The translations under genes and the position numbers were made by a program. A stretch of DNA of 64,000 nt from an uncultured candidate division Zixibacteria bacterium (GTDB lineage Bacteria; Zixibacteria; MSB-5A5; UBA10806; 4484-95). Under the pieces are notes generated by a model that made no database searches, had not been told where the DNA came from, and worked only from the letters and a program-made list of their open reading frames with translations. This document shows, in pieces, positions 30,335 through 34,480 of this stretch. Within the stretch, counting starts at the first letter, position 1. Each line of letters opens with the position of its first letter. The DNA lies in NCBI GenBank assembly GCA_963668625.2, contig CAXXKA010000010.1, positions 192,001-256,000 of the forward strand. The letters run 5' to 3'.

Positions 30335-30494
30335 GCGCTAACACGTTGGCAGGCGAGGACGCCCATCAACCATATACCTGTCATTCCGGGCTTGACCCGG
30401 AATCCAGGGGGGGCTGGCGATTTACCTCTACTATCGAATATCATTTCAACAGCGTAATCTTCCTCGAATCATGATAATCCCCGGCAGTCAGGCG
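30335..30494 (+). repeat. 160-bp direct repeat, copy 1 (REP palindromes plus the last 18 codons of a sorting-domain gene)
   Basis: Near-identical to 34778-34936. Contains GTCATTCCGGGCTTGACCCGGAATCC. Confidence 0.9.
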
Positions 30495-32717
30495 GTAGAA
30501 ATATATCCCCGAGGGATAATTACCTGCCTGCCACAGCACCGAGTGATTGCCGGCGGGCAGATACTCCTCAACCAGGCTCTCGGTGCGGCGGCCGAGAATA
30601 TCGTAGATATCCAACGTAACCTGCGAGGGCTGGATTAGCGTAAACGAGATGCTGGTTGTAGCATTGAATGGGTTGGGATAGGCGGAGAGATTGTACTGCG
30701 TGGGCAGAGAAACTATTTCGTCATCAATGCCAACCGGGGTTCGGGTGATTGACCAGACGGATTGCTGATCGGTGGCTATAAAAATGCGATTACTATCGGC
30801 TGGATCGATATAGGTTATCGCGCTGCTGTAATAGATATTTTGCCCCTCACTATACGGTTCCCACGACTGCCCCCTATCATGTGATTGATAAACTCCGTGA
30901 TAAGGTGTGTTGATATACAGGTTATCAGAATTATAAGGGTTAATAGCCAGGCCAGAGAAATGCTTATAACCATTATTATCCGGCAAGCCATTTCTTATAT
31001 TTGTCCAAGTTGAACCGTAATCATCGCTTTTAAAAACATCCCCATAGTACTTACTGGCGTACACTATATTATCGTTTATGGGATCACATACGATCTCAAC
31101 GACATATTGCCCCCCAGGTGGTGAATCAATTTGAGTCCAGGTATCGCCGCCATTAGTGGTTTTATATAGTGCATCGCCGCCTATGAAACCAAGATTATAA
31201 TCAGCCCGCGAGAAATCTATCGTACGGCATTCAGCGGCAGGCGAAATACCCTCAACCATATTCCAGCTCGAACCCGTATCCTCCGAGAAATATGCGCCTT
31301 GCAAGGTGGCCAGGTAATACACCTGACCATCCAATGTTTGTTTTAGATCTTTAAAGTATGCTTCGTAATCATAGTTATTCCAGAGAGTATCCCAGGTAGC
31401 GCCTCTATCAAATGAGCGAATTATCGTATGCGGATTATCTACTAAAAAACGTCTTCCTAATCCAACAAGGAATATGTCTGGATTGGTATTGTCAATCGCA
31501 ATACATCTGGGATAAACTAAATAATCTGGGCAAAGGATATCTATATGCTGCCAATCTTCGCCGGCATTATCCGTAAAGCAAAGGCCACCACAATAACCAA
31601 CCAGTTGTTCGTCGCAATTAGCGCTGTTTATAGCATAATCAGTACAATATCCATGATTTATATTCATACTGATTTTTTGCCAGCTATCTCCATTATCTAT
31701 TGACCGATAAATACCATCATATAATGTGCCAAGGTACAATATTCCCCCTGTCGAATCATACTCTATTCTATAGGTCGATCTTATCGTTAGGCCATTGTTG
31801 GCATCCTCCCATGTTTGTCCGCCATCAGTACTTTTAAGTACACCGTCTGCAGCAGTGCAAATGAAAACCGTGTGTTCTGAGTCGTTTAAAACCAGTATAT
31901 CCCACATTTCTACCATTTCCAGTCCTTCAGGAGTGATATCAAACCAGTGCTGACCACCATCGATAGATTTATACAAACATTTATCATTAGCAAAATAGAA
32001 ATCGTTTCCTCCGAAATAAATCGTATTGGGCTCAGCCGGATCAATCGCTAAAAAGCGGCCGATCGTAGTCGTGTCTAAATCATTATGAATATTTTCCCAG
32101 GTCTCCCCGTAATCATAACTTTTGTAAACTGATTTTCTGTAAGGCGCTGATTGTCCCACTCCAAAGATGATATTCGGGTTAATGGGATCAACTACAAAAT
32201 CAACTATTGATGCCAATTCCATATTTAGCTCATCCCAGGTCAAGCCACCGTTTATTGATCTATAATTAATACCTGATGTAAGTATACCATTTGCCATTAG
32301 TATATTAGGTTGCGTAGGGTGTACAGTAATTACTCTTACCTCATAATCATCTCCTTGCGGCAGCGATATTAATTCCCAATCCAAGCCGGAATCGCTGGAT
32401 TTGTACAAACCCTTTGTTGTTGCTGCATACATAGTATCCGGTTCATTCGGATGAAACTTGATCATCCTCATGTTTCCGGGGAGAACATCACTATCTAAGT
32501 GAGTCCAGTTAAAACCGGTGTTTTCCGACTTGTATAATCCGTAAGTTACTGTCCCTAAATATACCTCATTATTATTCTCGGGATGAATAGAGATACACAT
32601 AACCCGGCAAGCCTCCGGGCCATTGCTTGACCACTGGTTTTCATCGGCATGAAGGCTTAAGGATAATACAAGAAAAACCGTTAGTACCTCGAAAAATTTA
32701 AATTTGCATAAATTCAT
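30441..32717 (-). CDS. secreted BNR/Asp-box beta-propeller (VPS10/YCF48-like) protein with C-terminal sorting domain
   Basis: Repeated S.DGG.TW Asp-boxes, signal peptide and YPNPFN...KITLLK. Confidence 0.85.
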   Translation of the reverse strand: MNLCKFKFFEVLTVFLVLSLSLHADENQWSSNGPEACRVMCISIHPENNNEVYLGTVTYGLYKSENTGFNWTHLDSDVLPGNMRMIKFHPNEPDTMYAATTKGLYKSSDSGLDWELISLPQGDDYEVRVITVHPTQPNILMANGILTSGINYRSINGGLTWDELNMELASIVDFVVDPINPNIIFGVGQSAPYRKSVYKSYDYGETWENIHNDLDTTTIGRFLAIDPAEPNTIYFGGNDFYFANDKCLYKSIDGGQHWFDITPEGLEMVEMWDILVLNDSEHTVFICTAADGVLKSTDGGQTWEDANNGLTIRSTYRIEYDSTGGILYLGTLYDGIYRSIDNGDSWQKISMNINHGYCTDYAINSANCDEQLVGYCGGLCFTDNAGEDWQHIDILCPDYLVYPRCIAIDNTNPDIFLVGLGRRFLVDNPHTIIRSFDRGATWDTLWNNYDYEAYFKDLKQTLDGQVYYLATLQGAYFSEDTGSSWNMVEGISPAAECRTIDFSRADYNLGFIGGDALYKTTNGGDTWTQIDSPPGGQYVVEIVCDPINDNIVYASKYYGDVFKSDDYGSTWTNIRNGLPDNNGYKHFSGLAINPYNSDNLYINTPYHGVYQSHDRGQSWEPYSEGQNIYYSSAITYIDPADSNRIFIATDQQSVWSITRTPVGIDDEIVSLPTQYNLSAYPNPFNATTSISFTLIQPSQVTLDIYDILGRRTESLVEEYLPAGNHSVLWQAGNYPSGIYFYRLTAGDYHDSRKITLLK

Positions 32718-32755
32718 AAAATACTCCTATGATAAAAGTCTACTCCAAATTTCAG

Positions 32756-33769
32756 TTATCTGTTTGCTAACACAAAGTTAGGGAAATCTTCAAACACCCA
32801 ATTATTTTTCAAGGTGTCATAGATTATTCCCAGTAATTTTCTGGCTGTGGCAATGATAGCCTTACCGCTGCCACGACGGTTTTTTATACGATTGTAATAT
32901 TTACTCAAGTAATGGTTATATCGTATGGCAACAAGCGTACACTGCACCAGTGTAGTCCGACCAATCTTAGAACCACGCTTGGTAATCCGACCATGATGCT
33001 GAATCTCGTTTGAATTGGAAACTCGCGGCACTACGCCAAAATATGAGGCCAATTTATCTTTGTCCGAAAAATCAGCAACATCACCAATTACCGAAAGCAA
33101 CACTGTAGCTGATTTGCTGCCGATTCCTTTGATGCTGGTCAGGTTCTTATGCCCGTTCAACTTGCGACCCTGATCCTCTATCTGTTTGTCCAGCTTTTTT
33201 ATCCCCTCATTCAAACTGCGAATCTGATCAACCAATACCTCAAGCTCAACAGAAACAACCTCATCAAAATTCATCTTTAGAACCCGCTCCAAACTCTTGT
33301 TGCTGGAGTAGGCCTCCTTTTTACTCTTGATACCATGATGATTGAGTATGTTGTGTATTTTATTCTTCAAAGCTGTACGTAACTTGACCAGCTTGTCCCG
33401 TGTCCCAACAAGTGAACTGATCTGCGCTTTATCTTTCGTCTTTAATCGGGCTTTCGGCAACATGTCTTTGCTCATAAAATAGGCTAAGTTCCTGGCATCG
33501 TTTTCATCCGTCTTACTGACTGATGATTTGATTATCTCAAATTTGTTCGGATCGACGACAACAACTCGCTTGACCAAATGCGATATCTCATCAACGAAAT
33601 AACGAGTGTTGCCAGTGGCCTCAACCGCTACACAATCCGTCTTTTTTAATCCTCGTTTAAATTCCTTTAGATCCTTTAGCCGATACTCCTTGATCCTCTC
33701 CCGACCACCGGCTGTCAGGTAACACACGGTCAAACTGTTTGTGTGAAGGTCTACTCCTAAGTACCTCAT
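32756..33769 (-). CDS. IS110-family transposase/recombinase (DEDD RuvC + Tnp domain)
   Basis: YLGVDLH, VEATG, KTDENDA, GIG, G.VP..SNS, ITKRG and AIIATARKL. ATG at 33769. Confidence 0.95.
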   Translation of the reverse strand: MRYLGVDLHTNSLTVCYLTAGGRERIKEYRLKDLKEFKRGLKKTDCVAVEATGNTRYFVDEISHLVKRVVVVDPNKFEIIKSSVSKTDENDARNLAYFMSKDMLPKARLKTKDKAQISSLVGTRDKLVKLRTALKNKIHNILNHHGIKSKKEAYSSNKSLERVLKMNFDEVVSVELEVLVDQIRSLNEGIKKLDKQIEDQGRKLNGHKNLTSIKGIGSKSATVLLSVIGDVADFSDKDKLASYFGVVPRVSNSNEIQHHGRITKRGSKIGRTTLVQCTLVAIRYNHYLSKYYNRIKNRRGSGKAIIATARKLLGIIYDTLKNNWVFEDFPNFVLANR

Positions 33770-33774
33770 CTTCT

Positions 33775-33960
33775 TGCTCCATTCTATGGTTATCACTGGA
33801 GCAGACTCTCTGTCGGCGCCTACCAAACTCCTATTCAAGGTCTTTGCCTTATGGTGGCAATTCGGTTACAGGTCTGATTAATCTCCTTTACGAGGTCTGG
33901 CCTCAAGCATTCAGTTCAGCCTATAACCTATCCGCTCCAGTTAGAAATTCATTACCGAAG
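33775..33960 (-). ncRNA. putative IS110 bridge RNA
   Basis: The non-coding end contains segments matching the donor junction (ATAGGAG 33828-33834, ACCAT 33786-33790) and the target flank (AAGGAG 33883-33888). Boundaries are approximate. Confidence 0.55.
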
Positions 33961-34057
33961 CTCTAACACCAACAGAATAGATTAGCAAGATGCTTTTATC
34001 GTACCATCTCCTTATATAATTCCCCCCAATCAATATTGGGGGGAAGATATTATAATA

Positions 34058-34480
34058 TTAATCTGGCTGATCTAACAAATAATGAATATTTAACCTTGTT
34101 CCCGTACCCCACCTAAAACCGGGATAATCAATCGATGGTTGACTATCAATTCTCGCTCTATGGTCAATACCACTAGCAAATGTTGTAGAGCCAGTAAATA
34201 TCATTCGATCACCAATACTATATCCAATAGGAGATAATTCAACAGAAACGCCAGCACCTTCAATTAATACCATTACTAATGGACTACCATCGGCATCATA
34301 GGTGGATTTTAATTTCCAATTAAGTTTATTTCCGCATGGGTCATAATAATCAGTATACCCTTGTCCCATGTGAAGAGAAACTAAATTCTCGCATGCTTGA
34401 ATCGTAGATTTTCCTAAAGGCAAGAATACCATAACAAAGGCAAAGATTATTATACCAATTATAATCTTTTTCATTATCAA
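34058..34480 (-). CDS. hypothetical secreted protein
   Basis: 140 aa, signal peptide, AAGGA SD, AT-rich. Confidence 0.65.
   Translation of the reverse strand: MIMKKIIIGIIIFAFVMVFLPLGKSTIQACENLVSLHMGQGYTDYYDPCGNKLNWKLKSTYDADGSPLVMVLIEGAGVSVELSPIGYSIGDRMIFTGSTTFASGIDHRARIDSQPSIDYPGFRWGTGTRLNIHYLLDQPD

Follow-up and report, generated by a model that had tools for sequence, protein, structure and literature searches.

A 64,000-nucleotide (nt) stretch of DNA from an uncultured candidate division Zixibacteria bacterium (contig CAXXKA010000010.1, positions 192,001 to 256,000), hereafter called the window, carries on its minus strand a 1284-bp IS110-family element (window positions 32724–34007) inserted between a Shine–Dalgarno (SD) sequence and the start codon of a 758-amino-acid gene. 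We consider it very probable that the element is an RNA-guided insertion sequence (IS) of the IS110/IS1111 superfamily, active now or until recently, whose bridge (seek) RNA is programmed against the SD sequence. All 11 copies in the source genome lie directly after an SD sequence, the non-coding left end folds into a conserved two-loop RNA, and among related elements the loops of this RNA covary with the flanking DNA and with the element ends. All features below are on the minus strand, and motifs are given as read on that strand.

Element copies and their insertion sites

The element (ATGGTAC...CATAGGAG) consists of a 238-nt non-coding left end, a gene for a 337-amino-acid transposase/recombinase (32756–33769) and 32 nt past the stop codon. 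The open reading frame (ORF) matched PF01548 (DEDD_Tnp_IS110, 49.4 bits, cut-off 29), PF02371 (Transposase_20, 78.4 bits, cut-off 21.3) and NCBIfam NF033542, 'IS110 family RNA-guided transposase' (242.7 bits, cut-off 140). By these profile matches, the protein has at the domain level the N-terminal DEDD/RuvC-like and C-terminal Tnp domains by which the IS110 superfamily is defined. Its ATG has GGAG 8 nt upstream, and the alignments of relatives begin at residue 1–2. The left junction reads ...ATTATATAAGGAG followed by ATGGTAC (boundary between 34008 and 34007), and the right junction ...CTTTTATCATAGGAG followed by TATTTT-ATG (boundary between 32724 and 32723; ATG at 32717–32715).

The source genome (4.30 Mb in 10 contigs) was searched for copies of the element, and 11 were found at 100% identity. 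In a Logan assembly of the same organism, a 1290-nt unitig spanning 32724–34013 had a depth of 51, compared with ~4 for the flanks (~12x). Copy-to-copy identity ended at AAGGAG on the left and at GGAG on the right. Because AGGAG is common to the element end and the flank, the element ends are ambiguous by up to 5 nt, and the crossover falls somewhere within this shared AGGAG. Nothing but the shared AGGAG borders the copies, with no long target duplication, and both site type and orientation were the same in 11/11.

Every one of the 11 copies was located directly 3' of (A/T)AAGGAG (AAAGGAG in 9/11, TAAGGAG in 2/11), with a start codon 5–7 nt downstream and the element co-oriented with the gene that it precedes; none was found at a non-SD site in the genome. 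The genes downstream of the copies are mutually unrelated. They encode a BNR/sortilin protein with a type IX secretion tail, an FG-GAP protein, M32 and M14 peptidases, a glyoxalase, a SnoaL protein and a cytochrome-domain protein, in addition to two ORFs of 34 and 39 codons. At the window copy, the junctions and the comparison of the 11 copies identified the left target TAAGGAG (34008–34014) as the original SD of the downstream gene. The right end ATAGGAG (32724–32730) forms a new SD 6 nt before the ATG, such that the terminal ...CATAGGAG returns AGGAG at the original distance from the start codon. The target gene itself (30441–32717; 758 amino acids, BNR/Sortilin repeats and a type IX secretion sorting tail) is intact. 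A preliminary description made from the window sequence had assigned the element to IS110, had read both junctions as above, and had proposed that the right end regenerates the SD, leaving the element between promoter and start codon without breaking the ORF. The profile matches bear out the assignment, the junctions proved exact when re-read, and the junctions together with the intact gene agree with the proposal; the further copies, all at SD sites, extend it to the genome.

Upstream of the targeted SD, a consensus scan found a promoter-like site of the target gene, TTGTTA-18-TATAAT (34049–34078; 10/12, by pattern match only), that would read into the element. No terminator-like site was found on the element's strand in a scan at the window copy. 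This site and a G/C-rich hairpin (34046–34021) are both situated between the upstream 140-amino-acid ORF and the targeted SD; the hairpin may terminate transcription of the upstream gene or form part of a leader.

A conserved two-loop RNA and its guides

As a single sequence, the left end folded with z = –5.31, better than all 200 shuffles. A consensus structure was then derived from an alignment of 34 distinct relatives (alignment A2), on which RNAalifold was also run. An outer stem S1 (33938–33931 with 33805–33798) surrounds two loops. The first, or target, loop is closed by S2 and contains the inner hairpin S3 (33891–33905; 5 pairs, 2 with compensatory changes), and the second, or donor, loop is closed by S4 and contains the inner hairpin S5 (33836–33851; 5 pairs, 3 with compensatory changes). 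Over the structure as a whole, 95.7% of cells were paired and 15/36 pairs showed compensatory changes; 0/500 shuffles were as good, and slid controls reached at most 46% paired. A covariance model of the RNA, R1, gave 65 matches in 67 sources and located the conserved core of the window's own bridge (seek) RNA at 33938–33788 (134.6 bits, E = 9e-33). A 5' stem-loop ahead of this core (33942–33965) is predicted by the minimum-free-energy fold, not by covariation. RNAalifold proposed an alternative small hairpin (A2 columns 139–150) in competition with S4; S4 was preferred because columns 98/142 show compensatory changes, and both may form. The left end matched no bridge RNA family in Rfam, where the sole match at E ≤ 1 was an unrelated small nucleolar RNA model (E = 0.53). 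The motif (C)AGACCU occurs three times, at 33899–33893, 33876–33870 and 33843–33838, in the 3' strands of S3, S2 and S5; it is kept among relatives as GACC(U/C) and may be a repeated protein-binding feature of the pseudo-symmetric loops.

Two motifs left unpaired by the consensus structure, AAAGGAG (33889–33883) and AUAGGAG (33834–33828), resemble the targeted SD and the right end of the element, respectively. The former lies in the 3' part of the target loop. Its sense is that of the left flank, and its partner in pairing would be the bottom strand. AAAGGAG occurs 5 times on both strands of the 64-kb window (7.47 expected), and therefore ~0.014 chance matches are expected on the right strand of the 238-nt end by our arithmetic. 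In an unbiased scan, each of the 261 columns of the RNA alignment was compared with each of ten positions in the left flank (2610 pairs, 75 sites). The three strongest same-sense signals were column 103 with position –7 (62/75 identical, 38 expected), column 104 with –6 (73/75) and column 105 with –5 (75/75), which form a diagonal on exactly 33889–33883; position –8 gave no covariation signal. The remaining GGAG is uninformative as to whether a guide or a protein reads the target, because it is invariant in both guide and target.

The guide was then compared with the left flank at 76 insertion sites of ~55 related elements. The match was 7/7 at 61 sites and 6/7 at 14, with ten distinct guide 7-mers among them. 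At 24 sites the element had a non-consensus guide, and in 19 of these its own guide fitted better than AAAGGAG. Elements with TAAGGAG guides were at TAAGGAG sites in seven of seven cases, and those with AGAGGAG, TGAGGAG, TTAGGAG and AATGGAG guides were each at their own sequence. Similarly, three Acidobacteriaceae elements with the guide ACACGGAG were inserted in CACGGAG repeats, which are not SD sequences. The lineage concerned (L069, L075, L077 and L079, from Acidobacteriaceae metagenome-assembled genomes) combines this guide with the right end CATGGGAG and is found within runs of CACGGAG repeats.

That reprogrammed guides follow their own flank is as expected of a programmable guide and argues against recognition by protein alone. 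If the transposase itself read AAGGAG, the similarity of RNA and flank would be incidental, for example a leftover SD or leader; the invariance of GGAG, which makes covariation impossible there, and the presence of GGAG also in the outer stem S1 and in the right end would fit such a reading. It does not account for the covariation at –7, –6 and –5, the top three of all column-position pairs, or for the lineage at CACGGAG repeats, and no ORF follows the AAAGGAG of the left end, which precedes the transposase ATG by 114 nt. We regard recognition by the protein as very improbable.

The RNA also covaried with both ends of the element. Directly after the target guide, a handshake-like AU (33881–33882) equals the first two bases of the left end; its second base (column 111) was identical to left-end position +2 in 58/58 elements (42.9 expected), being U where the left end starts with AT and C where it starts with AC. 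In the donor loop, the candidate left-end guide (33852–33858) is at the same time the 5' strand of S4, as indicated by the S4 pairs and by the covariation of columns 148 and 146. GCCA (33858–33855) stands against top-strand left-end positions +5 to +2, with column 148 and +2 in Watson–Crick combination in 54/58 elements and column 146 and +4 in 58/58 including wobble. A constant C–A mismatch is opposite +1, and the C at 33853 is opposite the last G of GGAG. A donor register with ACCAU pairing left-end +1 to +5 was rejected, since the covarying register is three bases further 5'. The right-end guide, AUAGGAG (33834–33828) plus UU, occupies the 3' bulge of the donor loop (33826–33834); here column 215 was identical to right-end position –5 in 60/61 elements, and a change from ATAGGAG to ATGGGAG occurred in RNA and right end together, in the same lineages.

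The preliminary description had named four motifs in the left end, AAAGGAG (33889–33883), CCACCAT (33857–33851), ATAGGAG (33834–33828) and ACCAT (33790–33786), all at correct positions. Two of them keep the role given to them. AAAGGAG, proposed as the SD consensus encoded in the target loop, lies in the first internal loop and covaries with the left flank, and ATAGGAG, proposed as the right-end guide, covaries with that end; both fall in loops rather than in stems. The other two do not. CCACCAT, taken for the right target guide, is in fact the 5' strand of the donor-loop stem, whose neighbours GCCA covary with the left end. ACCAT, taken for a donor guide, falls outside the stem that closes the conserved RNA, where relatives show no sequence conservation (the R1 match ends at 33788), and a 5-mer is not unlikely by chance.

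These covariations also bear on whether the structured 5' region might simply be a cis-regulatory leader of the transposase mRNA with no trans-acting guide. The region would be co-transcribed with the gene, and a separate small RNA is so far only predicted, as such a leader would have it; the same model predicts no covariation with DNA outside the element or with its two ends, and homologous systems are described as using this region as a guide (PMC11208160, PMC11187229). We give this explanation even less weight than recognition by the protein.

Proposed insertion pathway and competing explanations

With an SD-programmed RNA, insertion may be envisaged as follows. The 5' non-coding end would encode a two-loop bridge (seek) RNA, in which the 3' side of the first loop is AAAGGAG plus AU, and in the second loop AUAGGAG would recognise the right end and the strand GCCA-C-C the left end. 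Base pairing of the AAAGGAG guide would therefore lead the element to SD sites between promoter and start codon. The recombinase would act at the AG common to both partners, of which the other strand reads CT like the IS621 core, placing the element right after the SD and in the direction of the gene. The element would then be downstream of the host gene's promoter, from which it could be expressed by read-through. Its right end ATAGGAG would supply a new SD at the original spacing, and therefore the gene would stay translatable and the insertion would be close to neutral for it.

Joined ends of a circular intermediate would bring together a promoter. A left sub-terminal inverted repeat, TACGATAAAAG (33993–34003), and a right one, CTTTTATCATA (32728–32738), each 11 nt long and 4 nt in from the end, match in 10/11 positions (91% complementary). 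In 57 relatives the repeat was conserved and co-varying (7.54 of 10 identical versus 6.00 for shuffled partners, maximum 6.60). The left repeat overlaps a –10-like hexamer, its first six bases TACGAT (34003–33998), and a –35-like TAGACT is at 32742–32737. In the joined ends these hexamers would be 17 nt apart, and similar hexamers are present in most of the 57 elements, which suggests a junction promoter. A short ORF (ATG-GNA-TGA) was considered as a conserved feature of the left end and dropped, as it is missing from the window's own copy and from the lineages whose left end starts with AC; the –10-like hexamer explains the conservation of the left end better.

The preliminary description had found no matching guide for the right flank TATT. 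For this genome a tentative one can be offered on the 5' side of the target loop, UGAAUGCU (UGAAUG plus CU; 33906–33913), which could pair with the top strand AG/TATTTA. The register was chosen by analogy with IS621, by which the two bases preceding S3 would be opposite the core AG, and the six ahead of those opposite +1 to +6. UGAAUG predicts YATTYA, and the 11 occupied right flanks, counted without three chance TATCATAGGAG in coding DNA, have TATTTA as their consensus. Paired positions numbered 3.82 of 6 in the occupied flanks and 2.62 of 6 in 286 SD-like sites that are free; among 14 registers this one fitted best (resampling p = 0.0002), and the first right-flank base was T in 9/11 occupied sites versus 59/286 free ones. 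Pooled over 76 sites, 237/456 positions were paired versus 193 expected (z = 4.5); without this genome, the count was 195/390 versus 164 (z = 3.6).

A number of observations weigh against an SD-programmed guide, or against parts of it. Regarding the right flank, two neighbouring registers also reached z = 2.3–3.3, which suggests a composition effect; no single RNA column covaried with the right flank in the 261-column scan; and UGAAUG-CU was unsupported in three other multi-copy families (2.17 vs 2.36, 2.67 vs 3.03 and 1.83 vs 1.71). The strong guide is only 7 nt long. Related elements are not independent: a presumably neutral pair (column 154 with left-end +7) reached z = 4.6, and z-values of 6–10 are strong but are not probabilities because relatives share ancestry. 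In a strict right-flank test on relatives from many phyla (start codon 3–12 nt away plus ORF; distinct flanks with at least 40 nt of sequence), 64/82 flanks passed, with a spacing peak at 5–7 nt, which speaks for SD targeting, and 18/82 failed; of the latter, 13 have an ATG 4–9 nt away by eye and three are from a lineage with a different target. No empty allele was recovered: the right flank (window 32200–32723) was unmatched in the 30 relatives' genomes searched, and the metagenome contigs of runs X4–X6 cover only the element. No circle junction was seen in the contigs examined. Finally, insertions that fell within genes and were harmful may have been lost, which could account for part of the all-SD pattern.

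In its full form this last point becomes an explanation of its own, in which the RNA specifies only the 7-mer (A/T)AAGGAG anywhere, and the all-SD pattern results from later loss of intragenic copies while SD-restoring copies are tolerated. Only seven flank positions covary strongly with the RNA, and three families give little or no support to the right-flank guide, both as expected if the 7-mer were the whole target. Free AAAGGAG and TAAGGAG sites number 490 and 361 in the genome, of which 153 and 133, respectively, are SD-like (followed by a start codon and ORF); with about a third of the free sites SD-like, selection would need to remove just about two thirds of insertions. The same counts speak in the opposite direction, since 34% at SD sites would be expected and 11/11 were found, for which the chance is ~8e-6 by our arithmetic if insertion is random among these 7-mers. 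The better fit of the occupied right flanks to UGAAUG than of the free SD-like sites, and their excess of T at the first base, are likewise at odds with a target limited to the 7-mer. In addition, the transposase ORF contains in frame, on the guide's strand, a second AAAGGAG (33314–33320), a perfect 7-mer self-target, in which no insertion was found in any of the 11 copies. We judge the combination of a 7-mer target and selection unlikely, though well above the two explanations dismissed earlier, and prefer an RNA guide programmed against SD sites.

Relation to known systems, distribution and implications

Of the known systems near to the present element, IS621 differs in its targets, which are repetitive extragenic palindromic (REP)-type repeats. 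IS110-type elements are described as RNA-guided, with target and donor loops in the RNA (Durrant 2024, PMC11208160; Hiraizumi 2024, PMC11208158; Siddiquee 2024, PMC11187229). In the accounts of IS621 given in the first two of these, the element shares with ours a DEDD and Tnp recombinase with an upstream non-coding RNA, an RNA made of a 5' stem-loop and two loops that each run through stem, guide, stem-loop and guide, and, within each loop, one guide for each DNA strand (PMC11208160, PMC11208158). Also shared are the handshake, in which two extra post-guide bases match the other DNA partner, and the core CT, here on the bottom strand with AG on top (Hiraizumi 2024, PMC11208158). A junction promoter at the joined ends, here by hexamer pattern only, is another likeness (PMC11208160, PMC11208158) and has been described for both the IS110 and IS1111 families (PMC11187229). 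The guide order is reversed relative to these accounts, with the same-sense AAAGGAG, AUAGGAG and handshake bases on the 3' sides here. Seen from the other DNA strand, the arrangement is the same as in IS621, with the 3' guide AAAGG-AG at CT-CCTTT and AU at the two donor bases before CT; by this analogy the donor site would be turned round relative to the gene. The proteins are distant (phmmer E = 3e-12, the C-terminal domain alone aligned). With the narrow IS110 type (IS621/ISEc21-like) the element shares the non-coding region upstream of the transposase (238 nt, compared with 32 nt downstream), and it differs from that type in having sub-terminal inverted repeats.

The order of guides seems closer to that of IS1111-type seekRNAs, described as placing the complement of the top strand ahead of the bottom-strand match, opposite to the IS110 type (Siddiquee 2024, PMC11187229). 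Here the bottom-strand match AAAGGAG is firmly 3', and the 5' top-strand complement is tentative. IS1111 elements are also described with sub-terminal inverted repeats of 11–13 bp and a non-coding region that, with few exceptions, is downstream of the gene (PMC11187229). The present element resembles ISEc11 and IS4321/IS5075 in its ~11-bp sub-terminal inverted repeats, and differs in having its RNA upstream of the transposase gene, as in the IS110 type and the few exceptions, and in its terminal extensions past the repeats (4 + 4 nt as drawn here, 7 + 3 in the published description). The ISEc11 transposase aligned over the full length (26.3% identity, 94% of the query, E = 3e-15). Among solved structures the best match was the ISCro4 transposase (PDB 9t56, E = 1.1e-12), with only residues 186–327 aligning well.

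Doran reportedly observed in 1997 that IS900 targets translation initiation signals. The target motif of this IS110-family element of Mycobacterium avium subsp. paratuberculosis, CATGNNNNNNTCTCCTT, reverse-complements to an SD plus start codon, and the element inserts between SD and ATG (PMC8141618), as do 11/11 copies here. In IS900 the transposase gene runs antisense to its target, and the host signals are borrowed by the hed ORF of the complementary strand, unlike in the present element, which is co-oriented with the gene and rebuilds the host SD; the passages on IS900 in that paper describe no bridge RNA guide (PMC8141618). Targeting of translation starts in the IS110 family and RNA guidance are thus known already. 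A literature search on IS110 or bridge RNA together with SD found no SD-programmed guide, no sense-oriented entry with SD restoration and no mixture of an upstream RNA with IS1111-type architecture; the supplementary target tables of Durrant 2024 and Siddiquee 2024, which may list one, were outside this search.

Relatives are widespread. One genome per species was scanned, giving 160 stretches, and the best 80 of these 160 (52–64% identity) came from Acidobacteriota, Omnitrophota, Planctomycetota, Spirochaetota, Nitrospirota, Alphaproteobacteria and others. In a protein database, 4786 relatives were found at E ≤ 1e-20 among 6941 candidates scored. Closer to the host, model R1 had 11 matches in the source genome, one weak match in G006 (61 bits) and none elsewhere among 31 genomes. 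With one of 30 host relatives positive, and that distantly, the distribution of the element is patchy, and a recent expansion in the source genome is probable. Contigs at least 99% identical to parts of the element were present in four studies besides that of the source organism (X4–X6, wetland and rhizosphere metagenomes), and none of them extends into the flanks of the window locus. A joint of 32748 to 33995 in an X1 contig was considered as a deletion derivative and rejected as unrelated similarity, having only 20–34 matching nt and four other letters.

Three observations were made on individual relatives. In eight of them (L036, L039, L058, L063, L064, L067, L078 and L081) the transposase stop codon TAG is inside the terminal CATAGGAG, so that the last bases of the transposase gene are also part of the SD rebuilt for the host gene, an arrangement that could permit translational coupling. 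In L025, the right end is followed by 16 nt that repeat the terminus of the element (ACAAACATCATAGGAG) ahead of the host ATG; these may be a trace left by an earlier copy, or the element may have entered a site that had already been rebuilt. Relative L021 (60% identity) has the same junctions and is on a 2.8-kb contig binned as 'Candidatus Bathyarchaeota archaeon'; this could be a mis-binned bacterial contig.

A guide RNA that spells the SD would provide a mechanistic reading of the 1997 observation on IS900, and the ten guide variants represent natural reprogramming at single-base resolution. Because its RNA is upstream while its sub-terminal repeats and, tentatively, its guide order are of the IS1111 type, the element should be useful for relating the two architectures. 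For genome annotation, such insertions are not to be scored as knock-outs without a test. The SD is kept in hundreds of copies by every SD-using bacterium, and an SD-programmed element would therefore have safe landing sites in almost any host; a landing site so nearly universal fits the presence of relatives in many phyla. More broadly, and as a suggestion to which we attach somewhat less than even confidence, a multi-phylum clade with the donor site turned round relative to IS621 and IS900 may enter the SD, the most widely shared short motif of bacteria, in the sense direction, use the promoter of its victim for both guide RNA and transposase, and return a replacement SD. If true, this near-neutral, host-independent 'stealth' strategy would explain the spread of the clade across phyla.

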